Origin: a virus
DNA length: 64,000 bases
Reading direction: 5' to 3' (one strand)
IMG/VR virus record: IMGVR_UViG_3300000366_000001
Coordinates: 1 to 64,000 of that record
Shown here one piece after another: positions 19,710 through 50,582 of the stretch. A model generated the notes under the pieces. The model saw only the letters and a list, made by a program, of their open reading frames with translations. It did no database searches and was not told the DNA's origin. Numbering within the stretch: position 1 is the first letter of the stretch; the number at the start of each line of letters is the position of its first letter. A program made the translations under genes and the position numbers.

Positions 19710-19785
19710 ACTGCCCTCCAAAAATTAGCCAAAAAAAATCCCACTACCCAAGGGTAGCAGGATCAAATCAAAAGTCAAACTTTTT

Positions 19786-20103: not shown

Positions 20104-20114
20104 CTTAACCCCGT

Positions 20115-20138
20115 CAAAAAAGCGACCCGAAGGCCGCT
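20115..20138 (-). terminator. rho-independent terminator after the major capsid gene
   Basis: Stem AGCGGCC/GGTCGCT with a UUCG loop, then T6 on the minus strand. Confidence 0.75.
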
Positions 20139-20155
20139 GTTCTTGAATTTATTTA

Positions 20156-22172: not shown

Positions 22173-23651
22173 TTATAATTGCTTCCCCTCATCTATCTCT
22201 GACTGCTGACTATCTTCAATATCCCCAGGCTCGCCAGCCTCTTCTTTATTATCGGTTAGCTCTTCTATTGCTTTATTTATTAGTTCGGCATCGGATTCAT
22301 AATCGTAATTCCTTGGCAATATGTTCTGCTGTATTAATACAGAGGCGGCTGCTTTTTTAGAAATAATGTTTGCCAATGATGCCTCTATAGCCACCCTAGC
22401 TTTTCTGTCATTGTCGCTTAGATCAAAGTCAGAGCTAGTCGTGATCTCTGGAATTAAGTCCTGCATCGGATAATAAGAAGCCATAATTGAAACGATGCGT
22501 TGCACATGCTGAGTAATCGCTGATGCAAACCCTCTTAAAGCAGCATTTGAACCTGCCGCATCAATGGCTTTCTCTGTCGCTGTAACATTGCCAGATGGCC
22601 TGATTGCGGAAGAGTCAACAGAAAAGCTTGATATGCGATATTCAATATCCTTGATAGTTTCCCTTGCCTGTTCAATAGGTGCAGCGTCTGCTTGAATCCA
22701 TTTTATATCTGCATCCTTTAATGTCTCAGGGTTTTTGTCGTCCAGAATGATAGCTTGCCAAGCCGCCAAAGCGGTCACTTTAATATCATCTGGAAGCCCT
22801 TTGCCGAATAGCATTGGAGTCAATGCGTAGTGCAAGTTGTTTTTAACATCACTGCTAACCTGAAAGTGCTCTATTGTCAATTCTGCAAGGCCCTGGTAAG
22901 GGCTTTCTGCAAGAAGAGTGCCTTTCTTGTTAGTATAAATAATAGAAACAGGGAGTTCATCAGTTACCCGCTTTGTTCCATTATCCTTATATCTTACTAT
23001 TTCGCCTTTGTCTTCAGGCTCATCATTCTCATCAATATAAAGAGCCCATGAGGTAGGCGTTATTTCCCAATAAGCATTTTTTGTTCCTGCCTGATTCATT
23101 TCATCGGAATCAGTAAAGATAGTGTCTTGCCACTTAAGCCTTGTAAGCCTTCCTGTACGCCTATTTATATCAAAATCAAGAACAGCATCTATATCAATCT
23201 CTTTTACAAAGGGCCTGCTATCCTCTGATATAAAGTCAACAAAGCAAAGAGCAACCCCCTTAAATAAAGAGCTTTGAAGCTGGTCTTTAGCCAAAACGTC
23301 AATGTTTTTTCCTTCCAAGTCCATATCATCAAGAAAAATATAAAACTCATCCGGCAGCGGCTGATTATCTTCTTGTTCTATTTTTATGGGAGCAGATATG
23401 ACTTTACCGGTATCGGACTCAATAGCTCTTTTATAGTAGTTAACCAGGAAAGATTGATTGATCCTATTGATATAAACATGATCCGGCTCTTCTGGGAATT
23501 TAGGAAGGTAAAGAGACTGCTTTGCAGTTGTATTTACAAGAGGCGAAAACATAGCGCCGCCACGAACAGACCTTAGACCATTGATTAGATCTCTGTTAAG
23601 CCTGTTTCTTGCGTATTGCTCGATAAAATAAGGCGAACGGCTTTGTTCCAT
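22173..23651 (-). CDS. portal protein
   Basis: 492 aa; lies upstream of scaffold and capsid; acidic C-terminus. The call is positional. Confidence 0.7.
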   Translation of the reverse strand: MEQSRSPYFIEQYARNRLNRDLINGLRSVRGGAMFSPLVNTTAKQSLYLPKFPEEPDHVYINRINQSFLVNYYKRAIESDTGKVISAPIKIEQEDNQPLPDEFYIFLDDMDLEGKNIDVLAKDQLQSSLFKGVALCFVDFISEDSRPFVKEIDIDAVLDFDINRRTGRLTRLKWQDTIFTDSDEMNQAGTKNAYWEITPTSWALYIDENDEPEDKGEIVRYKDNGTKRVTDELPVSIIYTNKKGTLLAESPYQGLAELTIEHFQVSSDVKNNLHYALTPMLFGKGLPDDIKVTALAAWQAIILDDKNPETLKDADIKWIQADAAPIEQARETIKDIEYRISSFSVDSSAIRPSGNVTATEKAIDAAGSNAALRGFASAITQHVQRIVSIMASYYPMQDLIPEITTSSDFDLSDNDRKARVAIEASLANIISKKAAASVLIQQNILPRNYDYESDAELINKAIEELTDNKEEAGEPGDIEDSQQSEIDEGKQL

Positions 23652-23728: not shown

Positions 23729-24097
23729 TCAGTCCTTTAAGGATTCAAGCCTTGAAACAATATAGCCATAAGCAAAGTTAAGTTGATCCTTACTTAAGCC
23801 TTTTAGGGTAATTGCTAATTCCTTTTGCCATTTTTCTTCCTGTTCCATTTCAATCTGTTTACCGAATGCTTCGGCTGGATGGTTTTTTTCAGTCTTTTTT
23901 TTGCTTTCGTAAAAAGCAGTCCAGTCGCGGTAGGCGATGATGTCTCCTTCGCTACCTGACCATTCCCAGCACCACCCTTGAGGGGTTTTATCTCTCTCAA
24001 TCTTTCCATCACGGAATTTCACTTCAACATCCCGTGATGGAACTGGGCATTCATCTGTTTCGGATTCCCATTCAATCCACTCTGGCTCATTTTTCAT
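23729..24097 (-). CDS. hypothetical protein
   Basis: The track start is TTG. The ATG at 24097 (MKNEPEWIEW...) has GAGGAA upstream. Confidence 0.55.
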   Translation of the reverse strand: MKNEPEWIEWESETDECPVPSRDVEVKFRDGKIERDKTPQGWCWEWSGSEGDIIAYRDWTAFYESKKKTEKNHPAEAFGKQIEMEQEEKWQKELAITLKGLSKDQLNFAYGYIVSRLESLKD

Positions 24098-24122
24098 TTG
24101 TTTTTCCTCGCTCAATTAAAAA

Positions 24123-24440
24123 TCACTTCGGAATCAAATCAGCCCTGCGAACATTGATATGCTCACCCGCATCAATGCAGATAGCCACGCTTGTAGGCAG
24201 GTATAGATCATCTGCAAACCATTGGCGCATCATAATATCAGGCGTTAGATAAAACGCTCGACCTTTAGGCACCTTATATAGCACTCCATTATGATCTTCC
24301 CATACTCCGATCAACTGTAGCTTTGACTCATCATAATAGCATTGAACCAGCTTAATAAAAAGCGTCTTGTTAGCTTTTTTGTCATCAAAGTAAATGACTG
24401 CTTTTAGATCACTTCCAGGTTTTCGATAAATTTTTAACAT
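24123..24440 (-). CDS. hypothetical protein
   Basis: 105 aa; ATG verified. Confidence 0.6.
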   Translation of the reverse strand: MLKIYRKPGSDLKAVIYFDDKKANKTLFIKLVQCYYDESKLQLIGVWEDHNGVLYKVPKGRAFYLTPDIMMRQWFADDLYLPTSVAICIDAGEHINVRRADLIPK

Positions 24441-24634
24441 TGTAGCTCCTCTGTTTTATAGCCAGTGACAAGCCATTTGCCCTGACTAAATTTACTATCA
24501 ACCTTAAATCCGTATGCGTTTAGCAGGCTGATAGCTGCGTTTCTTTCGTCTGCATTGTAACAGACTTTTGATGCCTTCGCAGTGCCGTTTTCTTGCATGA
24601 TTACAAGCTTGTTTTTCTCTAGTAAATCTCTCAT
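24434..24634 (-). CDS. hypothetical protein
   Basis: 66 aa; ATG verified. Confidence 0.55.
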   Translation of the reverse strand: MRDLLEKNKLVIMQENGTAKASKVCYNADERNAAISLLNAYGFKVDSKFSQGKWLVTGYKTEELQC

Positions 24635-24654
24635 TTTATTTACTCCTCAAAAGT

Positions 24655-24861
24655 TTATCGCCTAAAAATAGAGATGATAGCGCCAATCATCATCATTGTA
24701 AAGAAAACAATCATCGCAAGGGCAACGTAACCAAAATACACGATCACGACAGCGGGTGAAAACAGCCTCTCAACAAAACTAGGCTTTTGCCCATAATCAA
24801 GATTAGCAAAGATCAAAAAGCCAACGATAGTGTATAAGGCAAAAGCCAGGAATGTTAGCAT
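24655..24861 (-). CDS. small membrane protein
   Basis: 68 aa with two hydrophobic helices. Confidence 0.55.
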   Translation of the reverse strand: MLTFLAFALYTIVGFLIFANLDYGQKPSFVERLFSPAVVIVYFGYVALAMIVFFTMMMIGAIISIFRR

Positions 24862-25256
24862 TGCTTTACTCCTTTGATGATCGTTTCTATTTTGTCGCCA
24901 GTGGTTGTAGGTACGACAATATCAGCAGTCACAAGATTAGAATCCTTTAGGATATCTTCAGTTGATACGCCTTTCGCCTTGGCAAGCAAATCAACATGAT
25001 GCTCAAGATCATGGATATATTTATATAATGTAAAAGCTTCTTTCCATTTACCTGATTTATCAATCTGCTCTGGCGAAACTTCTCCAGTCCCGTCACAGAA
25101 TTCACATTCTTCTTCTTTTTCAGCATCGCAGCAATCACAATAAGTAACAATATCGCCATCACCATCGCAATAAGGGCATTCAAGATTAACAACTTCATGC
25201 AAAGCATCACTAACTCGGATGTCCAGCCATGTTTCGTAATCGTTAAATCTGTTCAT
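24855..25256 (-). CDS. zinc-ribbon (CxxC-rich) protein
   Basis: Contains CPYCDGDGD...CDCCD...CEFCDGTGE, a DnaJ-type Cys cluster. Confidence 0.6.
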   Translation of the reverse strand: MNRFNDYETWLDIRVSDALHEVVNLECPYCDGDGDIVTYCDCCDAEKEEECEFCDGTGEVSPEQIDKSGKWKEAFTLYKYIHDLEHHVDLLAKAKGVSTEDILKDSNLVTADIVVPTTTGDKIETIIKGVKQC

Positions 25257-25260
25257 AACA

Positions 25261-25422
25261 TTATGCTCCTGTAGTCATAATACGAACAACCATTTCTTCA
25301 ATTGAAGTATAAAAAAGAAATAGAGATAAAGCTAAAAGCATTGAAGCAATCTTTACATTTCCACAATGATAGTTGAGAACCGCAATAAACACATCAAAGC
25401 ATGCAAGCAACAGATAAATCAT
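25261..25422 (-). CDS. small membrane protein (53 aa)
   Basis: Own translation MIYLLLACFDVFIAVLNYHCGNVKIASMLLALSLFLFY... Confidence 0.4.
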   Translation of the reverse strand: MIYLLLACFDVFIAVLNYHCGNVKIASMLLALSLFLFYTSIEEMVVRIMTTGA

Positions 25423-25425
25423 TCT

Positions 25426-25662
25426 TCAATCTCCCCTCAGTTCAGAATAATACTCTAGGGCATTTTTGCTGCTCTTGCGTTCAACAACCTCATAGTCAGT
25501 TACGCCCATCTTCCCTAGTATTCTCTGAGCTGCAAGGTAGGCAGCTTTTTCGCTTGCGTAATGTGCATGTGTCTGCATAGCATGAGCCATACCCTCGTTA
25601 ACGTCCCACACAATACCCTTAAACATTCTGTTTTTCTCAATGACTGAAAGTCTGTATTTCAT
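25426..25662 (-). CDS. hypothetical protein
   Basis: Start moved to the ATG at 25662 (MKYRLSVIEK...) with GGAGAT upstream. It is the first gene after cassette copy 1. Confidence 0.55.
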   Translation of the reverse strand: MKYRLSVIEKNRMFKGIVWDVNEGMAHAMQTHAHYASEKAAYLAAQRILGKMGVTDYEVVERKSSKNALEYYSELRGD

Positions 25663-25734
25663 CTCAATATCTCCAAAAAAAGTTAGTCTCAATCAACAAT
25701 CGAAGCTTAGCATACTAAAAAACACCACGCAAGG

Positions 25735-25989
25735 CTATTTTTTGATTTTTTGCATTTATTTTAATGCGTGTGCGGGGTAAGAGTAAGAGTGGGTATCAGG
25801 AAGTGGTGTCTGTACCCTGTACTATATATAAAAAATAAAAAAATATAAAAAATACTATACTACTACGTAGTAGACACCCCTCAACACCCTTCCAAGCCTT
25901 ACCACACTTGCCTTTCAGTATATTAGCATCTTCTAAATTAGAAAATGATTAATTGACATTTATTGGCTATTTATTGGTATTTTTTGACC
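25735..25989 (-). repeat. intergenic cassette, copy 1 of 4
   Basis: On the plus strand it shares this layout with the other copies: CTATTTTTTG, then a G/T/A-rich arm (GGGGTAAGAGTAAGAGTGGGT). Next comes a ~50-bp A/T core, then a C-rich arm (ACACCCCTCAACACCC). It ends with the near-palindrome TTAGCATCTTCTAA and phased TTGAC / TTATTGG boxes. Confidence 0.85.
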
Positions 25990-26083
25990 ATTAAATAATG
26001 CTGATTTTGCTGCTTTGGTGGCTATATCCTGGTTTCGCTGGTTGCCAGAGTCTGATTTTAGTCGGTCTGGGGTAATTTAGGCC

Positions 26084-26110
26084 GATAAAAAAAGGGCTTT
26101 AATAGCCCTT
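26084..26110 (-). terminator. rho-independent terminator
   Basis: Stem AAGGGCT/AGCCCTT followed by T7 on the minus strand. Confidence 0.7.
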
Positions 26111-26129
26111 TGTGGTTTTGTTTGGATTG

Positions 26130-26519
26130 CTATACCTTGCAAAAATCAACTGTCTCTGAGTAGTAGCCATTACTTGATCCATACCATCGGATTGTTACTC
26201 CACCTTTGCGCGTATCAATCTTGTAAAAAGTCCAAGTGAATGATTCGTCTTCGTACTCAGGGCCGTCAACTCCATCGGGTGTTTCGCAGGTACCGTGAAT
26301 AACTTCCTCAGCTACAAGGATAGTGCTGCCAATAATATCATCCAGATCCCCGCACACATCCTCAATGTAGACATCTTCGCAGCAATCTTGGCTGTGAAAC
26401 AGTCTGTAAATTTCTCCATCAGTTGTGGTGAAAATAAGTTCTTCATTGTCTTGGTTTTCCAAGCTAACCAAAACTTTACCTTTAAGCTCTTTAAATTCTA
26501 TATATCTAATCACATTCAC
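26130..26519 (-). CDS. hypothetical protein
   Basis: 129 aa; GTG start (alternative GTG at 26513) after GAGAGGAA. Confidence 0.55.
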   Translation of the reverse strand: MNVIRYIEFKELKGKVLVSLENQDNEELIFTTTDGEIYRLFHSQDCCEDVYIEDVCGDLDDIIGSTILVAEEVIHGTCETPDGVDGPEYEDESFTWTFYKIDTRKGGVTIRWYGSSNGYYSETVDFCKV

Positions 26520-26824
26520 TTCCTCTCGTTAAACTGGTCTCAAAAATCAATTCTACGCCAAATTTCCCCACGAATTCGCTTAGGAAATAGAGTTGTCGCT
26601 ACTAAGCAGTTCATTCTCCATGGCAAGACTGTTATTTTTATCTGATACTGCTCAAATAGCTTTCCATCACCCCTAAGAAACAAATCCAAAGCGTCCCTGC
26701 ACGACATACCTCTGTTAAAACACCCTCTAAATCGCTCTATTTTGCCCTGTGAGGCGTTTATTTAAAAAAATTGTATCAGTGCATGAGTTACAAAATAAGA
26801 CGCTTAGAAGCGCTTAAAACGGCT

Positions 26825-27328
26825 TTAAGGCAGTTTGGCTAATCCATCGTCGTAGATTCGGCCTAACCCTGTTCTTACTGCGTGGTTATCCCAGAGACAG
26901 CCAGCCTTTTCTATCTCCTCATCAATCCATTTGTCGCGGTCTGACTTGATGGGCTCGAATGATGCGGTTGGCATATCCGCTGTATCAACGTGGTCTTTGT
27001 CTTTATTCCAAAATACCACTTGATTTGCGCCTCTTCTGTACTGGATGATTTCTACTTCGGCATGGAAGCAGCCTCCCCAATACATATCACACACCGTCCC
27101 AACAGGTGGCAAGCCTTGGCCAGTCCATTCGGGTGTTGATGATTCGGGACGCATTTCGAAGTCAAAGCGCCATTTGTGAATATTTATATCCTCATAGCGT
27201 CTTGATCTATGCCAGTTTCCTCTGTGCCAGCAAAAGTACTCTCCATTCTCATGCTTCCTGAAGCCACCGAAGTGATAAAACTGAGCGTCCGCTGGTGCTG
27301 TTTTCCAATCAGGTTTGTTAGTCATCAT
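26825..27328 (-). CDS. hypothetical protein
   Basis: ATG at 27328 (MMTNKPDW...) after AGGTGG; the track start is TTG. Confidence 0.6.
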   Translation of the reverse strand: MMTNKPDWKTAPADAQFYHFGGFRKHENGEYFCWHRGNWHRSRRYEDINIHKWRFDFEMRPESSTPEWTGQGLPPVGTVCDMYWGGCFHAEVEIIQYRRGANQVVFWNKDKDHVDTADMPTASFEPIKSDRDKWIDEEIEKAGCLWDNHAVRTGLGRIYDDGLAKLP

Positions 27329-27339
27329 TTTGCCACCTA

Positions 27340-27567
27340 TCAAATTGATAATGTTAATGCTCTGCCATTTTCAGGCTCACTGCTGTATACAGTAACGCCA
27401 ATAATTGAGAACCAGCCGCTTGAACTGCTATCCACAAGATCCTTATCCCTTGCTTCTTCTAGAAGATCATCAAAATGTTCGCCAGCATTGATATGAGATA
27501 CAAACCCCATATCAATAAATTTTAGGATCGTATCTAGGTTACTGTCTAGCACTATTTCTATACTCAT
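27340..27567 (-). CDS. hypothetical protein
   Basis: ATG at 27567 (MSIEIVLD...) after GAGAGGTG. Confidence 0.55.
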   Translation of the reverse strand: MSIEIVLDSNLDTILKFIDMGFVSHINAGEHFDDLLEEARDKDLVDSSSSGWFSIIGVTVYSSEPENGRALTLSI

Positions 27568-27872
27568 TTGCTCACCTCTCTCCAATATTGTTTAATTAAA
27601 TCTGAATCACTAGCCTCTTCAATCATGCTAACAACAGGGAAGCACAAAGGCAAGTTATTTTTTCTTTTCGCCACCAGATACCCCTTAGCAGAATCCACGT
27701 ACTCGAAAAATCGCCAATCGCAAATATCATAGCTGCAAGTCAACTTACGATAACTGCACCCATCCGCAATATCAAAAGTAACAGGAAAACGTCTAATTCT
27801 TCGATTCGCGTAATTCTTCATAAACGGTTTGCTATCCGAATAGCCTGGATATCGTTTTCTTGATCTGCTCAT
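27564..27872 (-). CDS. hypothetical basic protein
   Basis: ATG at 27872 (MSRSRKRYPGY...) after GGAGG. It is the first gene after cassette copy 2. Confidence 0.55.
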   Translation of the reverse strand: MSRSRKRYPGYSDSKPFMKNYANRRIRRFPVTFDIADGCSYRKLTCSYDICDWRFFEYVDSAKGYLVAKRKNNLPLCFPVVSMIEEASDSDLIKQYWREVSK

Positions 27873-27933
27873 TTCTTTCGGCCTCCATAACCAACAAGCT
27901 AAAACCTTAACAGACCGCCAATAGCAAAGCAAA

Positions 27934-28196
27934 TTATTTTTTGCATTTTTTGAATTAATTATTTGTGTGTGGGCGGTAAGTAGTAGGTAGTGGGTGTGAA
28001 CCCTACCTCTGTAAGAGGTACTAGTATATTTAATAAAAAAATATATTTAATAATAATATACACCTACGGTGTACCCTCTAACACCTCTACAGACACCGCC
28101 ATTGCTGACTTTCATCTAATACCTGACTAAAATGGTAGGTTTCTATTTTTTGCTATTAATTGACTTTTTTAGGGTATTTATTGACATTTTTTGACT
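27934..28196 (-). repeat. intergenic cassette, copy 2 of 4
   Basis: Same layout as copy 1. Its core CTAGTATATTTAATAAAAAAATATATTTAATAATAATATA is nearly identical to copy 3. TTGAC boxes lie at 28160, 28181 and 28191. Confidence 0.85.
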
Positions 28197-28295
28197 CTTG
28201 ATTATTGGCGGTTTTGGCTAGGATATAGATAAAAGCAATCATTTACTATTTAGATATAGGTAAAATCTATCGGCCTGACCATAATCCAGCCACAA

Positions 28296-28318
28296 AAAAA
28301 AGGGCTAAAAAGCCCCTT
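28296..28318 (-). terminator. probable terminator
   Basis: Short GGGC/GCCC stem followed by T8 on the minus strand. Confidence 0.45.
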
Positions 28319-28350
28319 AATTGTATTTTTTGGATTAAATTATTTTTTGA

Positions 28351-28767
28351 TTATTCGATAAGGTGCCTTGCAATTCTCTTCAGTTTCTCCTCATCTGATC
28401 CTTTCAGAATTACCACAACACCATCGTTAAAATTAATGCTTAACTCTACTTCTTGGTTTGACTTGTTTTCCTGGCCAGGCTTTCGGTTAGGATTGATTTC
28501 TTTCTCTACTTTATTGCTGCAATACCCACCTTCTCCGAAAAAGTCATGCTTGTTAAGCCTGATTGGATTATCAGGAATATCTACTCCAGCCCAAATACCA
28601 AAAGAACCTGAATATTTAAGAATAAAAGCTTCTTCTGTAACATGTAAATCACCGCAATCAACCTTGCACCCGATATGTTCAGCCATTGCTTCAGCGGCCT
28701 GGTTAATCTCTTCCTCTGACCAGCCCCTAACATCTACGTAATGGTTTTTAATTATCTTTTTCATCAT
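28351..28767 (-). CDS. hypothetical protein
   Basis: 138 aa; ATG verified. Confidence 0.6.
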   Translation of the reverse strand: MMKKIIKNHYVDVRGWSEEEINQAAEAMAEHIGCKVDCGDLHVTEEAFILKYSGSFGIWAGVDIPDNPIRLNKHDFFGEGGYCSNKVEKEINPNRKPGQENKSNQEVELSINFNDGVVVILKGSDEEKLKRIARHLIE

Positions 28768-28915
28768 TCAATCCCTCGTGCTGTTCGCTACAAACTTGAT
28801 ACTTTTCACCGCTTGACAACTCAACTTCAATAGAATTTTTCCTATTGCAAATAAGGCGCTTTATTGCCTCCCTTCCAGACTTATCATCCCTAATCTTACT
28901 TGCCAGCTTAGACAT
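28748..28915 (-). CDS. small hypothetical protein (55 aa)
   Basis: Own translation MSKLASKIRDDKSGREAIKRLICNRK...; GGAG lies very close to the ATG. Confidence 0.35.
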   Translation of the reverse strand: MSKLASKIRDDKSGREAIKRLICNRKNSIEVELSSGEKYQVCSEQHEGLNDEKDN

Positions 28916-28927
28916 TACTCCAACTAA

Positions 28928-29254
28928 TCAATAAAAGCTACCAAATTGTGCCTTGAAAGGCTTTGTATTGCCCTGTAAGCCTCGTTCTTGAATCAAATCT
29001 TGCAATGCACCCGACTTGCCATCATTAGCCCTGTAAAGCCATCTTCCACACTTAACGTACAACTGATAGTTAACAAGGCTTTCACCATTAATCCTATATC
29101 CCAGTTTTTTCTTAATCGCCTCTGACCGCATAAAGTCAATGCCGTTTTTAGTTAAGGATTCTTTAACAAGCTTTGAACTTCTTTCAGTCTGATAGAAGAA
29201 ACTTGCAATACTGCAAAGAAACACAACAAAAGCAATAGAAATATAAAAGTACAT
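28928..29254 (-). CDS. membrane-anchored hypothetical protein
   Basis: 108 aa with an N-terminal hydrophobic helix. Confidence 0.6.
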   Translation of the reverse strand: MYFYISIAFVVFLCSIASFFYQTERSSKLVKESLTKNGIDFMRSEAIKKKLGYRINGESLVNYQLYVKCGRWLYRANDGKSGALQDLIQERGLQGNTKPFKAQFGSFY

Positions 29255-29274
29255 AAAAATTCTCCAATAGTTTT

Positions 29275-29508
29275 TTAACTCAAAGCCTTCACAAGGTCAG
29301 CTAAAAGCTTCTCTTTAGCCTCGCCAGCAACGCCATGATAAAGCAAGTCATAGCATCTTTCAAGCAATAAATGCTGATTTTCAAGCTGATCTATCGCGTT
29401 ATTCAAGAGCAATGAAATAGCTACAGGATCAGGAACATAATCTTCATTCTTTAGAATTCTCCAGTCATTGTAGGCAGTTAAACCCTTAATCGTATCTAGT
29501 GTGGTCAT
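29275..29508 (-). CDS. hypothetical protein
   Basis: 77 aa; ATG verified. Confidence 0.55.
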   Translation of the reverse strand: MTTLDTIKGLTAYNDWRILKNEDYVPDPVAISLLLNNAIDQLENQHLLLERCYDLLYHGVAGEAKEKLLADLVKALS

Positions 29509-29684
29509 TTGATTAACTCCTTCAGCCTATCCACTAAAACTTGCAGCTTTTCATGTTCCTCTTCAGCCTGCCTTAATGCTTCATCTCTCTCAATAGCCAG
29601 CAAGTAAAGAGTGGCAAGCGCTTCTTTATTTTTTGTGGTTGTTGCGACTGGTTCCAGATATAAGAATGCTTCTTCTATATTCAT
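29505..29684 (-). CDS. hypothetical protein
   Basis: ATG at 29684 (MNIEEAFLYL...) after GGAGAA; the track start is TTG. Confidence 0.5.
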   Translation of the reverse strand: MNIEEAFLYLEPVATTTKNKEALATLYLLAIERDEALRQAEEEHEKLQVLVDRLKELIK

Positions 29685-29696
29685 TGTTTTCTCCAA

Positions 29697-29704
29697 ATTA
29701 TACA
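29697..29704 (-). promoter_or_regulatory. extended -10 promoter TGTATAAT
   Basis: Follows the terminator T-run directly. Confidence 0.45.
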
Positions 29705-29728
29705 AAAAAGCCGCTAATTAAAGCGGCT
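29704..29728 (-). terminator. rho-independent terminator
   Basis: Stem AGCCGCT/AGCGGCT followed by T6 on the minus strand. Confidence 0.7.
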
Positions 29729-29740
29729 AATGGTTAATCT

Positions 29741-30058
29741 TTATGCTCTTTTTTCAGCTTCCTTCTTCAATTCAGCATACAGAGCCTTAACGTAAGCAAG
29801 CGCTTTTTTTGCTTGTACTTCTTCGCTTTCGTAATCCTCGTGGATTGAATAAAGCGCATCTTCTTTAGCATCAACGACTTCGTTGGCACCATCAACCTCA
29901 ATAACCGGCATGTCATCATTACCCATTGTGCCATCAAAGATAGCCTCTTCCATCAAAGCGTTAACCGCTTCCTCCTTGCTTTCTTCAATATCATAATCAG
30001 CAAAGTCTGAGTTGTATTTTTTGTGCCAGTGCAGGTTGCTAATGTTTGAATGAATCAT
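29741..30058 (-). CDS. hypothetical acidic protein
   Basis: 105 aa; ATG verified. Confidence 0.6.
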   Translation of the reverse strand: MIHSNISNLHWHKKYNSDFADYDIEESKEEAVNALMEEAIFDGTMGNDDMPVIEVDGANEVVDAKEDALYSIHEDYESEEVQAKKALAYVKALYAELKKEAEKRA

Positions 30059-30114
30059 CTTGTATCTCCTAAGTGTTTTCTGGTTTAAGGGGCTGCGTTT
30101 CCCCTATGTCTTGT

Positions 30115-30143
30115 ATATTAATCCCTATGAGCTTAAGTGTCAA
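30115..30143 (-). promoter_or_regulatory. sigma70-type promoter TTGACA-17-TAATAT
   Basis: -35 at 30143-30138 and -10 at 30120-30115 on the minus strand. Confidence 0.65.
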
Positions 30144-30161
30144 ACACTTTTCTTCAAAAAG

Positions 30162-30347
30162 TTAAGAAAAATATCCAGGGCTAAAATGCTTGGCCTTGTG
30201 CCTGACCTTGCCTTCATTGATAAGGTCGTAGTTAACAATCAATGCACCGTTAAAACTTGACAGCTCGGTTACATGGACGCTTTCAAGTCGCACTGAATCA
30301 ATGTTAGCAATGATTGACTTTAGCTGGTCTTTGTTTGGTTTGTTCAT
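30162..30347 (-). CDS. hypothetical protein
   Basis: 61 aa; ATG verified. Confidence 0.5.
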   Translation of the reverse strand: MNKPNKDQLKSIIANIDSVRLESVHVTELSSFNGALIVNYDLINEGKVRHKAKHFSPGYFS

Positions 30348-30558
30348 CTGATTAAACCCCTATTATGTGCCTATAATCATGCGCTTAGGCAATATGTAAT
30401 CATCAATCCGCACCTGGCTTAGTTGAAATGCCCGAACAGCTTAGGCTCTTTAATGCAACCTAAGCCCTAATGTTGCATATACTTTTTTGGAGAACAGTAT
30501 CGGTATACGATCATTATTAAGCTACTTTTAACGCCCCTTCCTTGGGGCTGTTTGCTTA

Positions 30559-30771
30559 TTATGACGCAGGCACAACTTTGCCGCCTGATGCAAACATCTT
30601 TTCAATGGCTTGATTGGCCTCTTCAACGCTAACGCAGCCTGCGTTATTCCATCCGTTGCCGCCATTTTGCACGATGCTGATTTTATCGTGTCCTTCATAG
30701 CTGATGAATTGTATTTCACCGCCGTTTACTGCGATCTGGATTACTTGGTTCTGGTTGGCTTGGATTTTCAT
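30559..30771 (-). CDS. hypothetical protein
   Basis: 70 aa; ATG verified. Preferred over the overlapping 63-aa ORF in another frame. Confidence 0.55.
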   Translation of the reverse strand: MKIQANQNQVIQIAVNGGEIQFISYEGHDKISIVQNGGNGWNNAGCVSVEEANQAIEKMFASGGKVVPAS

Positions 30772-30854: not shown

Positions 30855-32402
30855 TCACCCGTAGCTTACACGGCCTGAGCTTCTCTTTCTCTGATTGGCT
30901 ATTCGATACCTGAATGCATCATAGTCGTGATCAGGTGCATCGCTATCAATGTCATCAGGGTTCTTGCTATCCCTTGGCAGCACAGGAAATCGGCTAATAA
31001 AACCTCGACAATAATCAAACACATAAAATCCAGGTTTTTCACCTATTCCGCTTTCATTTTTGCTTGCATCTAAAGAAGCCTCCAGGTAATCACAAATCAA
31101 TGCAGCGCCGCTAACCCTTGAACCTGGCTTCTTGTCGCTTGTAGTCCATCTAACACCCTCTGTTTTCATCTTGTCTGCTATCGTATGCCCGTCACTAATG
31201 TTGTTTATTGCGTTGTCAGCAGGGCCTGGGTTTACTTTTCCGATAACTAATCCAGGTTTAAAGTTTATGGTTCCAAGCATTTTGAACGGCTGATCAACAT
31301 CAACGCCCCTGATCCTTGCATCAATCCATTTAACGCCCTTTGCTACTTTAGTGCTTGTATATCTAATGCCCTTGTTGTCCTCTCCCTCTTCATTACCGTA
31401 CCATTCTCCTATCAGAAAAACATCTCCCTTGCAGGTTGGTTTTGTTGACCCGTCCGGCATCTCGATATCAGAGCCGTCTGACTCAGCAAACCACAAATTA
31501 GAAAAAGGAGCTGACTCACCCCAATCATGCGAGCGATCAATGTACCAGCTCTTAGGTATTTTAAACGGCTTAACAACGTGAACGTGCTCATCCCACAGGT
31601 AGTCAAAGCGACCTCCAGCAGTCACAGACCAATCGCCCTCAATCCAGGCTTTTCTTTTATTTCGATCCTTTATGCTCAACAGCTTGGCTATATACATATC
31701 ATCGAGATAAGGGTTTTCCATGTAAGAACCAAAAATTCTAACTTGCACCCTTGTCAAGCTTTTTGTTTTACCTGTTTGCGGGTTAAGAACCTCATAGGTT
31801 CTCTTTACTGGAGTTCCAGCGGGTGCAGGATCAATAAACCTCTTTTTAACCCAGCTATGACCAGGGCCGTAAGGGTTGGTTGTGCTGAATATCTCAACAG
31901 GTATTGGAGGTAACTTACCTTGCAGTTCTTTAGGAACTTGGAATGATGACCGGTTGCATGAAAGCATAGCTTCATAGCATTTATCATCAGCATAAGATGT
32001 CAATTCTTCCCAGCTAATATATGGCAATTCTTGGCCGTGATAACTCCAATAATCATCCTCTTTTTTAAAGTTTCTGAACAGAAGCTCTTCACCTGTGGCA
32101 AACACCCACTTAAGGTCGCCTTTAGATGCAAGGAATTTAGCGTCTGGAAATATCTGAGGAAACCATCTCTTAGACTTGGAAATTATATCTTCAAGGTCTT
32201 TATATTCTTTTCTGAAGATCACACCCCTCCAGTATTGACCATAGCCAATGCCAACGCGATTAGCAAATCTCATAAGAGTGGTATCTGATTTTCCAGGCCC
32301 CCTTGTCCCCTCATATAGAATCTCATCAAACGGGCATGTTAGCGCTAGAGTCTGGCTGCCAGGAAGAGGCTTCCATATAATTTTTACATTTTCTTCGGAC
32401 AT
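30855..32402 (-). CDS. terL: terminase large subunit
   Basis: 515 aa; Walker A motif GTRGPGKSD near the N-terminus; lies directly downstream of the small subunit. Confidence 0.85.
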   Translation of the reverse strand: MSEENVKIIWKPLPGSQTLALTCPFDEILYEGTRGPGKSDTTLMRFANRVGIGYGQYWRGVIFRKEYKDLEDIISKSKRWFPQIFPDAKFLASKGDLKWVFATGEELLFRNFKKEDDYWSYHGQELPYISWEELTSYADDKCYEAMLSCNRSSFQVPKELQGKLPPIPVEIFSTTNPYGPGHSWVKKRFIDPAPAGTPVKRTYEVLNPQTGKTKSLTRVQVRIFGSYMENPYLDDMYIAKLLSIKDRNKRKAWIEGDWSVTAGGRFDYLWDEHVHVVKPFKIPKSWYIDRSHDWGESAPFSNLWFAESDGSDIEMPDGSTKPTCKGDVFLIGEWYGNEEGEDNKGIRYTSTKVAKGVKWIDARIRGVDVDQPFKMLGTINFKPGLVIGKVNPGPADNAINNISDGHTIADKMKTEGVRWTTSDKKPGSRVSGAALICDYLEASLDASKNESGIGEKPGFYVFDYCRGFISRFPVLPRDSKNPDDIDSDAPDHDYDAFRYRIANQRKRSSGRVSYG

Positions 32403-35631: not shown

Positions 35632-36336
35632 TTACTCAGGACGACTAATGAATTTGAATTTTGCATTTGGAGCAAAGACATCACCCGCATCGTCTTCGCA
35701 AAGCTCTACCTTAGATTTATCTGAGCTTAATATCGCGTTTACCTCATACCGTTTTCCTTTGGCTGTAAATCCAGAATCTTCAATACACTCAACAATATCC
35801 CCTTTTTTCCAGGTGTTAGGATCATAAATATCAACTCCTTCAGGGATATTGTTGTTTTCGTTTCTATTAAAAACGCCAACAGTGCAAGAAAACCCTGTAT
35901 TGTCTTCAATAAGACGCTCTAGCTGTCCTGTAAGCGATTCTAGGCGCTGATCCATATCAGCAGTCAGGTTTAGCAGTTCTTTAGCTTCTAGCTCCGTTTC
36001 TGTGCGCTGGCATGATAGCTCCTTGATGCTAGCTAGTAGCTGGTCAAGATTGTTTTGTTCGCTGTTGCTATTTTCGCTATTTTTGCATGGATCGTCAATA
36101 ACTGTAAAATCAAATCCCCAGTTCATAGAAGGAATATCTCCATCCTCATCTTTAGGGCCGATGATTGCATCATCGCCAGAAATCACATAAGCACACCCAG
36201 CATTGAAAGACCAGTGATCATGTAGGAGGCTAGTAAACCCATTAAACAAAACCTTTTTACCTACCATATCCTTGTTGATAGGCCATTCTAGTTTTTTGTT
36301 GCTTGTTTCATTTTTCTTGTTACCTGTGTCATTCAT
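35632..36336 (-). CDS. hypothetical protein with central coiled coil
   Basis: Start moved to the ATG at 36336 (MNDTGNKK...) after GAGGAT. It is the first gene after cassette copy 3. Confidence 0.55.
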   Translation of the reverse strand: MNDTGNKKNETSNKKLEWPINKDMVGKKVLFNGFTSLLHDHWSFNAGCAYVISGDDAIIGPKDEDGDIPSMNWGFDFTVIDDPCKNSENSNSEQNNLDQLLASIKELSCQRTETELEAKELLNLTADMDQRLESLTGQLERLIEDNTGFSCTVGVFNRNENNNIPEGVDIYDPNTWKKGDIVECIEDSGFTAKGKRYEVNAILSSDKSKVELCEDDAGDVFAPNAKFKFISRPE

Positions 36337-36426
36337 ATCTATATCCTCAAGCTTTGGTTTCTGCGCCTGCCGACAAAAGCAAGCCCAACACGACAAAGCC
36401 TAAACCATTCATCCAGAACAGTCAAT

Positions 36427-36683
36427 CTATTTTTTGAATTATTTTCTGCGGGTGAAGGGTAAGTAGGTAACTGGTAGTGGTTGCTAGTGCTCGAGATAGT
36501 CTCTCTAGTATATTTAATATAAAAAATAGTTTTTAATATAATAATAGAGTAGTACAGACACCCATAACACCCCTGTAAACCAGTACTGACAGGGCTTTCA
36601 ATACATTAGCAGTTGCTAAATTAGCAAATGATTTATTGACTTTTTAGCAGGGTCAAAAAATGCTTTTTTTGGAATTATTGACC
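36427..36683 (-). repeat. intergenic cassette, copy 3 of 4
   Basis: Same layout as copies 1 and 2. Palindrome TTAGCAGTTGCTAA lies at 36606-36619. The string GCATTTTTTGACCCTG...AAGTCAAT is shared with copy 4. Confidence 0.85.
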
Positions 36684-36778
36684 TTTTTTGGCGGCTGATT
36701 TTCTGGATTTTGGTTGAATTTTGCCTTTCTGTCTGGATAGGGTGCCTGTTTTTGGCTGTCAGCTCAGGAAAATAAAGC

Positions 36779-36801
36779 GAAAAAAAGCCCCTTATTGGGG
36801 C
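36779..36801 (-). terminator. rho-independent terminator
   Basis: Stem GCCCC/GGGGC followed by T7 on the minus strand. Confidence 0.65.
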
Positions 36802-47938: not shown

Positions 47939-48242
47939 CTGTAAGATACCCCCACGCTTTTCTAGTAATATCTTGAGGGCAGCTTAAAGCCATTGCACAT
48001 GCTGCATGACCAATCCATGCCCTTCTATTTATATTTTCGTCTGTTAGTGCGTTCTCACAACTAAAGATCCACTCTTCAGTTACGCTTTTCATGTATTTTC
48101 CGTATAAATAATGATCTCCTGTGAACTCAATAGCTTTTTCAAGCATTTCCTTTTTATTATTGCAGGTAGACCACATCCCTTGGCCTACCTCCTCCCACTT
48201 CCAGAACGGATGAGCAATATGCTCAAATTTCCTCTTTACCAT
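47811..48242 (-). CDS. hypothetical protein
   Basis: 143 aa; ATG verified. It overlaps the ParB-like gene end by 20 nt. Confidence 0.55.
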   Translation of the reverse strand: MVKRKFEHIAHPFWKWEEVGQGMWSTCNNKKEMLEKAIEFTGDHYLYGKYMKSVTEEWIFSCENALTDENINRRAWIGHAACAMALSCPQDITRKAWGYLTDEQRFLANKEADSAIRLWEKHYIENKGLRKDVDGQMLFEWYS

Positions 48243-48798
48243 AAATATCTTCTTCTACAACCTCCCAGCTATCTGAAAAATCCTTGTTTTGAAATAAAGC
48301 TGCTACACCTGTAATCTGTTTTAACCTAAGAAGCTCATCCTTACTCATACCTATATGGTCACATATCCACCTGTCCCCCTTACCCATCTCAACAAGCTCT
48401 GCTACAATCGTGCTCATTAGCTCTATACTATGAGTGCCCCTAGCCCTGTTATGACGAATTGTTGAGGCCATCCTGTTATCCATAGTCTTGTTTAAGACTA
48501 CAATAGGAAGCATTCCTTGCTCCCTTTGATAAACCCTCTTACTTGTCTTCAGTGTTAAATAACGGTGAAAGCCATCAATGACAACATATTGATCTTTATC
48601 TTCATCATAAACAGTTACAACAGGTTGAGTATAACCATCCTCCCATATTGATGTCTCAAGCAGCTCCATTTCTGGCGGCGCAACGCTATTAGGATTATAG
48701 TCGTTAGCCGTAACTTTTTCCACTGGAACCCGTAGAACATTGTAAACAGGAGAAACAAAACCTGACTCAAAATCTTTATTATCGTGGTGGTTTTCCAT
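48223..48798 (-). CDS. ParB-like nuclease domain protein (IbrB-like)
   Basis: Has NPNSVAPPEMELLETSI...IDGFHRY...RHNRARGTH; ATG at 48798 after GAGG. Confidence 0.7.
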   Translation of the reverse strand: MENHHDNKDFESGFVSPVYNVLRVPVEKVTANDYNPNSVAPPEMELLETSIWEDGYTQPVVTVYDEDKDQYVVIDGFHRYLTLKTSKRVYQREQGMLPIVVLNKTMDNRMASTIRHNRARGTHSIELMSTIVAELVEMGKGDRWICDHIGMSKDELLRLKQITGVAALFQNKDFSDSWEVVEEDIYGKEEI

Positions 48799-48815
48799 GC
48801 AAAGCCTCATCTCAA

Positions 48816-49205
48816 TTATTTTACACAAAACACTTCGTAACTTCCATCCTCATCATGGACTTCATTTCCAGTCAGAGGCGGGTTAAAAACACAAAGCAAA
48901 ACAGTCTCATCAATTGCCTCAAAAAAGTGCGGGTCATTCTCATCTAAAATGTAAGTTGTATCTGGAGTAATAATAAACTCCTCTCCGGTTTTAGCGTTTG
49001 TAAGCACCGCTTTACCCTTTACACAGTAACAGCTTTCAAGATGATTCTTGTAGTGCTGAAAAACCCTTCCAGCATCTGGACTTATCACGGTTTTTGTGAA
49101 GGTGTAACCCATTTTATCTTCCAGCAAAATTATGCGGTTACTTACGCCAGCATGAAATTCAACTTTCCTGCTTTCTGGCAATTGATTGGTTTTGATTACT
49201 TTCAT
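48816..49205 (-). CDS. ectoine-synthase-like cupin (EctC family)
   Basis: HYKNHLESCYCVKGKAVL...PDTTYILDENDPHFF...LLCVFNPPLTGNEVHDEDGSY aligns by eye with Halomonas EctC (HYKHHFEAVYCIEGEGEV...PGDIYILDQHDEHLL...[21 protein letters not shown]). Confidence 0.7.
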   Translation of the reverse strand: MKVIKTNQLPESRKVEFHAGVSNRIILLEDKMGYTFTKTVISPDAGRVFQHYKNHLESCYCVKGKAVLTNAKTGEEFIITPDTTYILDENDPHFFEAIDETVLLCVFNPPLTGNEVHDEDGSYEVFCVK

Positions 49206-50527
49206 TATTTATCACCCTTCTTGTTTAGATTATTGTATTTTTTCTGTATCTGCTTCTGTCTTGCAGCCTGCTCTTTAGTTGGAGCAAGACCCATATACTT
49301 ACAAGTATGATCGTTCTTTAAAATTGTCACTGCAAACCTTTTCCAGCTAGTTACATCTGAATTGTTGCAAGACAGCATATCCAAGTGATCTGGTGGAGTT
49401 TTTATTTTAACTCTACGTAAATCTTTTCTACCGTGACTGGTATATCCGTTCACAGTGAATTTTACACCTGCACTGTTTAGTTCGTCAATAGTTTTTTCTG
49501 GCAATCCGCGCCCCACTCTACCCCAATATCTTATAGATTGAATGAAGCGCCCCTTAAAATTTTCTGCGGTTTCCTCCGGCAAGGTATCGAGCAAAAACTT
49601 AACAAAGCTTTTCCATGTATGACCTTTTGGAAGACTTATATTTCTGTAATTAAGCTGCTTACCATAGGTAACCATAAAATTAGCCCCGTTAACTCTAGCG
49701 CAAAGCCTTGCCCAAATATGAGGATCTATAACCCTATAAAGGTTTAGGCTGGCCTTTGCCTCACTCATAAATGGTGACGCTACCCGCATAGATCCAACTG
49801 GTACACCAGCCTTGTAAAAAACATCATACAGCTTGTTGTAGTCCCACTCAAACTTAGCATTAGCAGCCCATACATCATCAGTGCGCCAATCATAAATAGG
49901 GTAACAATTAAAAACATTTTTAGTGTTTTTCTTTGTCCAGGCGTAACCATCAAGCATCTCCTTTCTATCGTTCATAATGGCTCTAAATCGGTTGAGGCTT
50001 TCTTGCGTCCTAATGCCAATAAGGTTGGCTGTTTTTTTTCCTTCGGCATACCACTCTGCAAACATATCCCAAAAGTGATCGTACTGCATGTTTTCTACAA
50101 ATTTATCCCCGAAAGGATGATTTTCAAAATTTACAACATAGTCATCTTCCGGCATTGGCCTTATCCATCTATCTTTATCACCCTCTCCCCAGCACTGCCA
50201 ATCTTGATCGTAAGCAGAAACGGTGCATGGTAATGTTATTGGCATGCAGCACCAATATACATCAAGATAATCCGAGTTATCTTTCAATATTCTGTGCATA
50301 AATTCAAGGCTTAAGTCATAATTTGCCTCGTTATCCATTATCTGAATACCAAGCTTTTTCTTTACATTGTTCTTTTTCATATAGTCAAGGCAAAGATTAA
50401 GCATTATCCCAGAGTCCTTGCCGCCTGAAAAAGAAAGATAGACCTTTTCAAAGTTATTAAAAATGTAATCTATGCGCTCCATAGATGCATCATATACGTT
50501 TTTACCTCTGTTGTATTGCCTGCGCAT
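49205..50527 (-). CDS. PAPS-reductase-fold protein with DUF3440-like C-terminus (IbrA-like)
   Basis: N-terminal PP-loop context YLSFSGGKDSG; 440 aa; ATG at 50527 after AAGGAG; TAATG junction with the cupin gene. Confidence 0.75.
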   Translation of the reverse strand: MRRQYNRGKNVYDASMERIDYIFNNFEKVYLSFSGGKDSGIMLNLCLDYMKKNNVKKKLGIQIMDNEANYDLSLEFMHRILKDNSDYLDVYWCCMPITLPCTVSAYDQDWQCWGEGDKDRWIRPMPEDDYVVNFENHPFGDKFVENMQYDHFWDMFAEWYAEGKKTANLIGIRTQESLNRFRAIMNDRKEMLDGYAWTKKNTKNVFNCYPIYDWRTDDVWAANAKFEWDYNKLYDVFYKAGVPVGSMRVASPFMSEAKASLNLYRVIDPHIWARLCARVNGANFMVTYGKQLNYRNISLPKGHTWKSFVKFLLDTLPEETAENFKGRFIQSIRYWGRVGRGLPEKTIDELNSAGVKFTVNGYTSHGRKDLRRVKIKTPPDHLDMLSCNNSDVTSWKRFAVTILKNDHTCKYMGLAPTKEQAARQKQIQKKYNNLNKKGDK

Positions 50528-50582
50528 CAACTCAACTCCTTAGCCAATTCAATTAACCTGTTCATTTTACCCGATCCGATTC

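Follow-up and report, generated by a model that had tools for sequence, protein, structure and literature searches.

What is the intergenic cassette that is found four times in the first 64,000 nucleotides of the IMG/VR virus record IMGVR_UViG_3300000366_000001 (referred to below as the window), and what might it do for the gene blocks in front of which it stands? An initial annotation of this DNA drew attention to the copy at 36427-36683 and proposed that the cassette could be a phage promoter or enhancer, one of multiple origins, or a centromere-like site for a ParB-like protein. Data from the present analysis favour the first of these options, by the placement of the cassettes, by conserved hexamers with conserved spacing, and by a grammar of A-tracts that the cassettes have in common with other promoters of the phage. 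In our reading, to which we give about an even chance, each cassette would be the promoter and control region of a separate gene block, made up of a promoter for host sigma-70 RNA polymerase with an UP-like A-tract and of a module upstream of it. The cassette is probably an elaborate promoter region and no new kind of element. Promoter activity, start sites and the role of the upstream module are proposed here on the basis of the sequence.

Four copies of one homologous unit

Upon reading of the window and alignment with MAFFT, four collinear copies of the cassette (c1 to c4, see Table 1) were found where the initial annotation had placed them, and the sub-features listed there were present at their coordinates, with the exception of a palindrome that is lacking in c2. 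Among these sub-features are the string CTAGTATATTTAATA common to the A/T cores of c2 and c3, the arm example ATTCAAAAAAT, and the TTGAC boxes of c2 at 28160, 28181 and 28191. The order of the blocks is identical in all copies, so that the common order described before is borne out by the alignment. The size of the unit had to be corrected from ~260 bp to ~330 bp, as the homologous module reaches beyond the earlier coordinates toward the gene by ~35 bp in c1-c3 and by ~80 bp in c4.

Pairwise identity among the four copies is 52-58% overall and 48-57% with the A/T core removed. It had been proposed that the similarity would dissolve if identity outside the A/T-rich DNA fell below 60%; identity is indeed lower than this, but the dissolution was not seen. 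In leave-one-out searches with nhmmer, the profile of three copies recovered the omitted one with E values of 2e-24 (c1), 5e-22 (c2), 9e-26 (c3) and 2e-16 (c4), and across the 64 kb these profiles gave no other match below E 1e-3 save weak reverse-strand self-hits within c3 and c4. Left halves alone, with the A/T core removed, still recovered the omitted copy (E 1e-5 to 3e-9), and right halves alone recovered c1, c3 and c4 at E 5e-12 to 4e-21 and c2 marginally (E 0.15). Because both kinds of profile recover the omitted copies, identity of less than 60% is a poor test of kinship.

Short motifs are concentrated in the same places. Of the 17 occurrences of the 8-mer ATTTTTTG in the window, 11 fall within the cassettes, which account for 2% of its length; WTTWWTTGAC occurs nine times in the window compared with 3.1 expected, eight of the nine being in cassettes; and tracts of five or more A or T are enriched three-fold in the cassettes (p = 8e-7). 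Judged from these comparisons, the family is homologous and unique in the window, and its four copies arose by duplication.

The third copy in an orthologous contig

A protein search with the first gene behind c3 led to a homologue of 80% identity on a 1,579-bp contig of ENA (L017), and this contig carries the orthologous c3 (nhmmer E 1.6e-66). Between the two sequences, the flanking coding sequences are 88% and 82% identical and the 5′ untranslated region (UTR) 87%. Within the cassette, identity is 92% for block A with the adjoining arm, 58% for the linker, 100% (47/47) for the A/T core, 94% for the other arm, 96% for the palindrome and 94% for the boxes; further out it is 74% for the stretch from the boxes to the terminator (36693-36770) and 95% for the terminator itself. 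Taken together, 181 of the 189 positions in 36504-36692 are identical (96%), compared with 826/957 (86%) in the coding sequence on either side (Fisher p = 8e-5). Conservation is thus higher in the cassette core than in its coding flanks, which argues for stronger constraint on this core than on the neighbouring genes, at a comparative depth of one close orthologue. By this measure of conservation, the cassette family is under selection.

Searches for more distant relatives gave no further copies. Among 50,697 phage records, nothing meaningful was returned by a megablast search with 6 kb of sequence or by a blastn search with c3. Pattern scans of IMG/VR, of JGI metagenomes and of GTDB genomes were done with ATTTTTT..TATTANATATASTAG, TTAGCA..CTAA..ATTGAC and TATTTTTTG..GGTAAG..TASTATATNTAA, and their matches, when checked with the family profile, were chance matches only. 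Relatives by the large terminase subunit TerL, at 39-44% identity in IMG/VR and at 72-74% in the Logan contigs L005 and L006, are without the cassette, and so are relatives by a DUF7448 protein (L018-L023). The family is apparently confined to one uncultured phage lineage.

In one of these relatives, L006 (TerL 72% identical), an intergenic gap of ~870 bp at a strand switch (19320-20185) contains many AACTAACGTT-type repeats and an A/T-rich stretch. This is a different repeat system at a similar place, without homology to the cassette.

A promoter candidate at the gene-proximal end

At the end nearest to the gene, every copy has a pair of promoter-like hexamers, followed by a UTR of 25-60 nt, a Shine–Dalgarno sequence and ATG. 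In a scan with an approximate position weight matrix (PWM) for sigma-70, this proximal site was the sole promoter-like site to keep its position throughout the five sequences, i.e. c1-c4 and the orthologue; among sites in the direction of the gene it is the top one in c2, in c3 and in the orthologue, and the second-best in c4. The layout is that of promoters with an UP element: the hexamers, correctly oriented, are 17 bp apart (16-18 bp expected) and stand before the first gene within the expected 20-100 nt, the matches of c1 and c2 being weak, and an A/T-rich element such as is expected at about −40 to −60 is present in c1-c3. In these three copies a CAAAAAATAR box ends 1-2 nt upstream of the −35 and its A6 tract 4-5 nt upstream, which is not so in c4. 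This A-tract had been recorded in the initial annotation as the last of six shared blocks (ATTCAAAAAATAG) with no notice taken that it is sited as in the ordinary promoters of the phage; the hexamers lie just outside the coordinates then given.

The ordinary promoters are recognized as follows. The pattern TTGACA-N16-18-TAnnnT has 12 sites, all on the gene (minus) strand, at 30115-55465 of the window, compared with 2.75 expected and with no shuffled sequence reaching 12. In 9 of these 12, a tract of four or more A lies no more than 14 nt upstream of the −35, compared with 11% of random positions. The twelve sites look like early or middle promoters for host RNA polymerase. Another sequence, TGTTATAAT, occurs exactly seven times on the minus strand (11599, 14910, 17261, 22109, 23687, 32430 and 33080), directly upstream of TerS, TerL, portal and several head and tail genes and without a −35, and looks like a class of −35-less, extended −10 late promoters. 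Neither an RNA polymerase gene nor a sigma gene was found among the ~60 window proteins scanned, and hence the phage appears to rely on the sigma-70 RNA polymerase of its host. No site in a cassette reaches the TTGACA...TAnAAT consensus of the phage; the best scores are 10-12 and belong to non-consensus sites.

A second, distal candidate is found in c3, its orthologue and c4 only, in which one TTGACC faces the gene and a −10-like AATCAT or TATTCT follows 16-17 bp on (PWM 10.4-11.2). For both the proximal and the distal candidate, the two hexamers are unchanged in L017 and each spacer carries two substitutions.

Structure of the upstream module

The boxes at the far end of the module number 2-4 per copy. 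Each is 9-10 bp long and joins an A/T tract to GTCAA/TTGAC, and their spacing is 10-11, 21 or 42 bp; 80-150 bp, in which further conserved blocks are found, separate them from the A/T core. Most boxes point away from the gene, and their number, orientation and spacing vary between copies. They had been described as outward-pointing boxes without a −10, which is correct for the outward ones, but not for c3 and c4, each of which has the gene-facing TTGACC and its −10-like hexamer mentioned above. Moreover, direct repeats of the A-tract block (17-19 nt, 82-88% identical) recur 232-241 bp upstream in c1-c3; in c3 the repeat of block A is 17 nt long, lies within the distal boxes and is 236 bp away. 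As TTGAC(C/T) follows each of the two repeat copies in c3, the distal end and the proximal one look like a tandemly duplicated unit of A-tract and −35 with the odd middle between them.

Next to the boxes stands a palindrome, perfect in c3, with one mismatch in c1 and two in c4, and absent from c2; elsewhere in the window no palindrome of this kind with fewer than two mismatches was found. It is followed by a G-rich arm, in which GGTGTTAnGGGTGTCT is common to c1-c3 and absent from c4, and on the other side of the core by a C-rich, G-poor arm in which CTTACC is invariant. The strand-asymmetric arms of the initial annotation are thus present, except that the c4 arm on the side of the TTGAC boxes is not C-rich. 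One or two A-tracts of the form CAAAAAAT(A/C/G) close the module in each copy; in c1, c2 and L017 two of them stand in tandem at a period of 9 nt, and c3 is without the second tract of L017.

The A/T core between the arms is 40-50 bp long, with 2-3 G/C in its most A/T-rich 40 bp. In a ranking of 50-bp duplexes by stability, the four cores take the four lowest places in the 64 kb (−47.1 to −48.6 kcal/mol; mean of the window −65.1, standard deviation 4.4), and the least stable of all is the core of c3, on both strands of which promoter-like matches were found. The best-conserved block among the copies is the motif TTAnATATA[CG]TA[CG] at the gene-side edge of the core; its part ATATA[CG]TA[CG] has exactly four matches in the window, one in each cassette, all of them oriented toward the gene. 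The linker of ~15 bp after this motif is poorly conserved. In a wedge model, the predicted curvature of the cassettes peaks at 48-63 degrees per 31 bp, which is close to the 99th percentile or higher. Because the peaks fall in different sub-regions in each copy and are not the top sites of the window, the high predicted curvature is suggestive only.

Table 1. Positions in the window of the four cassettes, their parts and the features next to them
Feature	Copy	Position	Strand	Remarks
Homologous unit	c1	25700-26030	minus	read toward gene; alignment
Homologous unit	c2	27900-28230	minus	read toward gene; alignment
Homologous unit	c3	36390-36720	minus	read toward gene 35632-36336; MAFFT, leave-one-out nhmmer (E 9e-26), orthologue in L017
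Homologous unit	c4	62172-62510	plus	inverted; to 62548 with promoter candidate; alignment
Proximal promoter candidate	c1	25732-25704	minus	TTGCGT-17-TAAGCT
Proximal promoter candidate	c2	27932-27904	minus	TTGCTT-17-TAAGGT
Proximal promoter candidate	c3	36425-36397	minus	TTGACT-17-TAGGCT; PWM 11.7; ~60 nt before ATG at 36336
Proximal promoter candidate	c4	62520-62548	plus	CTGACA-17-TAGGCT; beyond a 50-nt insertion
Block A	c1	25735-25752
Block A	c2	27934-27953
Block A (A-tract)	c3	36427-36446	minus	CAAAAAATAG; read as UP-like element, 1 nt upstream of −35
Block A	c4	62461-62470
Arm, G-poor	c3	36447-36490	minus	C-rich in gene direction, G-rich on plus strand; conserved CTTACC/GGTAAG
A/T core	c1	25820-25869		TATAGT at 25821-25826
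A/T core	c2	28011-28060		TATACT at 28023-28028
A/T core	c3	36504-36550		contains ATATACTAG; −10-like TATACT at 36507-36512 on minus strand, TATAAT on plus strand
A/T core	c4	62350-62399		TATAGT at 62386-62391
Arm, G-rich	c3	36551-36600	minus	G-rich in gene direction, C-rich on plus strand; contains GGTGTTAnGGGTGTCT
Palindrome	c1	25923-25936		TTAGCA-N2-TGCTAA with one mismatch
Palindrome	c3	36606-36619		TTAGCAGTTGCTAA; operator-like; ~+8 to +22 of distal promoter candidate
Palindrome	c4	62276-62289
Boxes	c1	25948-25990
Boxes	c2	28143-28212
Boxes (distal)	c3	36628-36692		include gene-facing TTGACC-17-AATCAT (36656-36628)
Boxes	c4	62211-62265		gene-facing TTGACC-16-TATTCT at 62239-62266
Intrinsic terminator before cassette	c1	26091-26111
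Intrinsic terminator before cassette	c2	28299-28318
Intrinsic terminator before cassette	c3	36787-36801	minus	ends preceding transcription unit; outside conserved cassette
First gene of block	c1	25426-25662	minus
First gene of block	c2	27564-27872	minus
First gene of block	c3	35632-36336	minus
First gene of block	c4	62581-62811	plus

Genomic context

The phage is a marine-type, tailed virus of siphovirus type, and the G+C content of the window is 40%. Its structural genes include those of a lambda-like tail tip protein, tape measure, tail tube protein, portal and TerS/TerL; genes of metabolism and replication are those of ribonucleotide reductase, ThyX, dUTPase, PhoH, a beta clamp, an exonuclease and a Holliday-junction resolvase, and there are further genes for a PAPS-reductase/DUF3440 protein beside a ParB_N protein, for ectoine synthase and for a BRO-N protein. 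No isolated phage is close to it, TerL being 56% identical to that of HK639 and portal ~25% to those of YuA-like phages. From 62.1 kb down to 1.1 kb, nearly all genes are on the minus strand, and from 62581 on they are on the plus strand. Cumulative GC skew runs monotonically and turns over at c4 alone, the point at which the genes change direction, with nothing to be seen at c1-c3.

The cassettes fill four of the largest intergenic gaps, including the single largest. All four stand 60-110 nt before the first ATG of a gene block, and c1-c3 start ~70-100 bp after an intrinsic terminator. The fourth lies in a divergent gap, with the BRO-N gene on the minus strand (61378-62055/62175) to one side and small genes on the plus strand, including those of a phosphatase and a YopX protein, to the other. 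The rule that each copy follows a terminator or a divergent gene and precedes the first gene of a block, put forward in the initial annotation, therefore holds for all of them. The blocks headed by c1, c2 and c4 consist almost wholly of orphan genes. Between TerL (30855-32402) and portal (22173-23651) lie ~7 kb of small genes, most of them orphans (23729-30771), and c2 and c1, which bracket a 2.2-kb block of orphan genes, split this stretch into terminator-bounded units, an arrangement that is unusual for a packaging and head module.

Two other regions of the window were recorded in passing. Upstream of the tRNA cluster, ~600 nt on the minus strand (60720-61330) are without an open reading frame (ORF) and are preceded by a strong promoter candidate, TTGACG-16-(TGg)TACAAT at ~61331-61358. 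This stretch has a minimum free energy of −206.5 kcal/mol (z −2.97 compared with shuffled sequence) and a repeated GGGAAGGGTTC(T/A)G motif, with no Rfam match at E <= 1, and may be a large phage non-coding RNA beside the tRNAs. A fourth tRNA-like gene at 60637-60707 on the minus strand (Rfam, 37 bits; not called by ARAGORN) stands beside tRNA-Pro, tRNA-Cys and tRNA-Arg. Elsewhere, the genes of the PAPS-reductase/DUF3440 protein and of the weak ParB_N match (48223-50530) flank a homologue of ectoine synthase (48816-49205), an unusual auxiliary set.

Proposed function and alternative explanations

We suppose that the gene-proximal end works as an ordinary weak promoter, in which one or two A6 tracts would serve as an UP-type element for the alpha subunits of RNA polymerase, followed by a −35-like TTGnnn, a spacer of 17 bp and a non-consensus −10, TA[AG]G[CG]T, with an expected 5′ UTR of 25-60 nt. 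With only T1, A2 and T6 kept in this −10, promoter output would be expected to hinge on the UP element and the upstream module of ~250 bp, which may tune strength or timing in three mutually compatible ways. It could be a platform for regulators of phage or host origin, since the palindrome at +8 to +22 of the distal promoter of c3 and c4 would be in the classical position of an operator, and the boxes might bind a phage protein, or the C-terminal domain of alpha and region 4 of sigma. It could provide extra start sites, from the TATA[CG]T of the core in all copies and from the distal TTGACC-16/17 promoter in c3 and c4. Finally, it could be a supercoil-sensitive site of melting. Together with the preceding terminators, the cassettes would delimit moron-like or PeSL-like blocks of mostly orphan genes (PeSLs are introduced below). 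The statement that the design fits no standard element is accordingly too strong for its gene-proximal end, which is standard, and holds for the ~250 bp upstream, which are unusual.

Several points weigh against this proposal. The proximal hexamers are weak, with PWM scores of 7.4 in c1 and 6.8 in c2, and a score of 6 or more is reached by ~9 sites per kb on each strand; moreover, the proximal hexamers fail the 9-of-12 rule of the promoter scan. The pattern TA[AG]G[CG]T was set after the sequences had been seen, so that its match in four of four copies is in part circular and in part owed to common descent. The promoter candidate of c4 is shifted 50 nt away from block A. The distance from the core motif to the −35 varies (88-97 nt, and 135 nt in c4), which leaves no fixed helical phasing and speaks against any activator or loop that depends on stereospecific placement. 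Conservation is highest in the A/T core, at ~100-150 bp upstream of the −35 proposed here, and the proposal gives no reason why a promoter should need ~250 bp of such peculiar composition upstream of it.

Due to the variable distance between core and −35, a promoter that makes a leader RNA stays a serious alternative to the proximal promoter, or a partner of it in a tandem arrangement, even though we consider it unlikely. Transcription would start within the A/T core, possibly in both directions, with TATA[CG]T as −10 and A/T-rich DNA in place of −35 and UP element; the leader of ~90-150 nt, C-rich and G-poor and then with A-tracts, would be a Rho-loading (rut-like) or protein-binding attenuator that sets timing, and a mirror-image −10 (TATAAT, c3 and c4) would send a short transcript the opposite way. 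A variable distance to the gene is harmless for a leader, and the presence of ATATA[CG]TA[CG] once per cassette in the direction of the gene, as the block best conserved among the paralogues and in a core identical at 47/47 positions in the orthologue, speaks for such a start. So do the sites that passed the promoter scan (TTTATA-17-TATAGT in c1, TTAAAA-18-TATACT in c3, and TTAATA-17-TATAAT on the other strand of c3), the low conservation (58%) just downstream of the core hexamer, as expected around a start site, and the compositional symmetry of the cassette, seen as a weak reverse self-hit (E 0.002). However, conservation is lacking in the −35 region of the core, the score of c2 is 6.4 and no site of c4 reaches 6, indels alter the spacing from T-run to hexamer among copies, and the hexamer is without the TG extension of the −35-less TGTTATAAT promoters; the opposite arm of c4 is not C-rich, and four core hexamers compared with 1.7 expected are not significant on their own, as 11 of 100 shuffles reach four. 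The melting of the core can also be read in terms of replication, with the cassettes as dispersed replication elements, the core as unwinding element, the TTGAC boxes as initiator iterons and the link with promoters secondary. Dispersed origins are known from other viruses, with two in SPP1, several in T4, and the hr elements of baculoviruses, which are both enhancer and origin. In favour of this reading, which we take to be improbable, are the four cores as the easiest sites to melt in 64 kb, the repeated boxes nearby with their phasing of 10-11 or 21 bp, the position of c4 at the switch point of GC skew and transcription, and a core more conserved than the neighbouring genes. Yet the boxes differ by copy in number, orientation and spacing, are 80-150 bp away from the core, and are the same unit of A/T tract and TTGAC that is found in the ordinary promoters of the phage; at least three similar, regularly spaced iterons adjoining an A/T-rich element were not found. 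No replication initiator was seen among the ~60 window proteins, DnaA boxes are not enriched in the window, cumulative GC skew is featureless at c1-c3, and the pairing of arm to arm that a cruciform needs is not conserved. Thus neither the option of multiple origins nor the iteron reading of the boxes, both raised in the initial annotation, gained positive support. A perfect DnaA box, TTATCCACA, was noted at 62246-62254 on the minus strand, between the inverted TTGAC/GTCAA pair of c4; it is absent in the other copies and probably there by chance. There is also some small chance that the upstream module is a new dispersed cis-element for the neighbouring weak promoters, a supercoil-sensing enhancer or an enhancer and origin in one; a phage protein would then bind the TTGAC boxes and the palindrome, and by analogy, and with as little probability, the module would be functionally comparable to baculovirus hr.

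Other alternatives concern the movement of genes, the segregation of the genome, and RNA. If the repeats were mainly substrates of recombination, in the manner of PeSLs, they would let blocks of orphan genes be excised, inserted or swapped; or the inner ~235 bp could be a small inserted element that has spread from one promoter site to others, and the flanking direct repeats of 17-19 bp would then be accounted for. These repeats flank c1, c2 and c3 at a spacing of 232-241 bp, c1 and c2 bracket the 2.2-kb orphan block within the ~7 kb of small genes between TerL and portal, and PeSLs set a precedent (PMC2839356). We give this explanation little weight, for copies of 52-58% identity with longest exact matches of ~15 nt are poor substrates for homologous recombination now, and the flanking repeats are part of the family consensus (A-tract and TTGAC-like) and not target duplications. 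The marks of a miniature inverted-repeat transposable element, i.e. terminal inverted repeats, target-site duplications and copies elsewhere, were not found: terminal inverted repeats there are none, the scans of other viruses, metagenomes and genomes gave nothing beyond chance, and relatives with 72-74% identical TerL are without the cassette. A role as parS centromere-like or architectural site for the ParB_N protein (48223-48828), BRO or Rha has in its favour the near-palindrome of three copies and the ParB_N and BRO-N proteins encoded in the window. Dispersed centromeres do exist, phage N15 having four. The palindrome is, however, perfect in one copy only and absent from c2, and the ParB_N match is weak (E 1e-4, below the Pfam cut-off) and adjoins the PAPS-reductase/DUF3440 gene, a pairing that we take to be characteristic of modules for DNA modification, and not of partition systems. 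The scan of the ~60 larger ORFs gave no ParA, and nothing in the window hints at a plasmid-prophage lifestyle, so that the proposal of a centromere for the ParB-like protein finds no positive support in an inconsistent palindrome and is very improbable. A structured non-coding RNA or a micro-ORF is hardly probable at all. The copies c1 and c2 fold better than shuffled sequence (z about −2.7 to −2.9, save −1.5 for the plus strand of c1), and an SD-like GGTAAGAGGT followed by GTG on the plus strand could start a micro-ORF; against these stand folding z scores near 0 on the plus strand of c3, its orthologue and c4, an RNAalifold consensus of −3.3 and −2.5 kcal/mol on the two strands with almost no covariation, and Rfam 15, which gave no match at gathering threshold or E <= 1 save two chance-level hits. 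The short ORFs across the G-rich arm are not in the same frame from copy to copy, and an indel of 1 nt interrupts them in the orthologue.

Other candidates were set aside. A conserved cruciform or long hairpin between the arms was rejected, as only c1 and c2 pair well. Sites for IHF, Fis, lambda CII (TTGC-N6-TTGC) and sigma-54, a Bacteroidetes-type promoter, boxA/nut, Chi, integron attC and the 5′ end of group II introns were checked by eye in the alignment, and none is conserved across copies.

Significance and comparison with known systems

If the cassettes are promoter regions, the phage has three types of promoter, i.e. the consensus TTGACA type, the TGTTATAAT type before structural genes and the cassette type, and a transcription-unit map of an uncultured phage lineage is ready at hand. 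Four diverged copies and one orthologue would then be a natural series for dissecting the effect of a long, meltable and skewed upstream region on a weak sigma-70 promoter. Should the upstream module prove to have a role in replication or to work from a distance, bacterial viruses would have in it a rare counterpart of the enhancer/origin repeats of eukaryotic viruses.

Sigma-70 promoters with an UP element, such as rrnB P1 of E. coli and the early promoters of T4 and T5, resemble the cassette in the A-tract at the −35, the 17-bp spacer, the TAnnnT −10 and the further A/T-rich, tract-rich DNA upstream. They differ in that the −10 of the cassette is far from consensus, and an ordered upstream region of ~250 bp is not described for them. 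Lambdoid morons are extra genes with their own promoter and terminator inserted between essential genes, and the c1 and c2 units are self-contained in the same way, each being composed of cassette, small genes and terminator between terminase and portal; a common paralogous promoter region of ~330 bp, however, is not a feature of morons. The origin of lambda, oriL and oriR of SPP1 and the baculovirus hr elements likewise have short repeated boxes near an easily melted A/T segment, and several dispersed copies in promoter regions, but the boxes of the cassette are short, variable in number and orientation, and separated from the core. In ilvPG, an upstream activating sequence is destabilized by supercoiling through a mechanism of stress-induced duplex destabilization (SIDD) and IHF. 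By analogy only, a meltable A/T segment ~100-150 bp upstream could pass its destabilization on to a weak −10 in the cassettes, in which, unlike ilvPG, no IHF site was found and the distance to the promoter is variable. We know of no described counterpart in which the most meltable DNA of a genome lies between oppositely skewed arms upstream of a weak promoter.

PeSLs of T4-type phages are mobile regulatory cassettes of promoter plus stem-loop (PMC2839356, PMC4122927). They too are repeated, dispersed intergenic motifs with promoter features, an A/T-rich upstream part and G-then-C tracts, and they too are tied to terminators and to blocks of orphan genes. In contrast, PeSLs are small, have a consensus sigma-70 promoter and a tight polyG/polyC stem-loop that serves as terminator, and are similar enough to one another to recombine, whereas the cassette is a ~330-bp element of a siphovirus with a weak promoter, with copies of ~55% identity, with G-rich and C-rich arms ~50 bp apart that do not pair consistently, and with a terminator 70-100 bp outside the unit. 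Identity of the cassette with a PeSL is therefore rejected, given the lack of a consensus promoter and of an integral terminator hairpin, the other size and the far more diverged copies. As it stands, and on the simplest reading, the cassette family is a well-documented curiosity that falls within a known kind, the repeated promoter and regulatory cassettes of phages.

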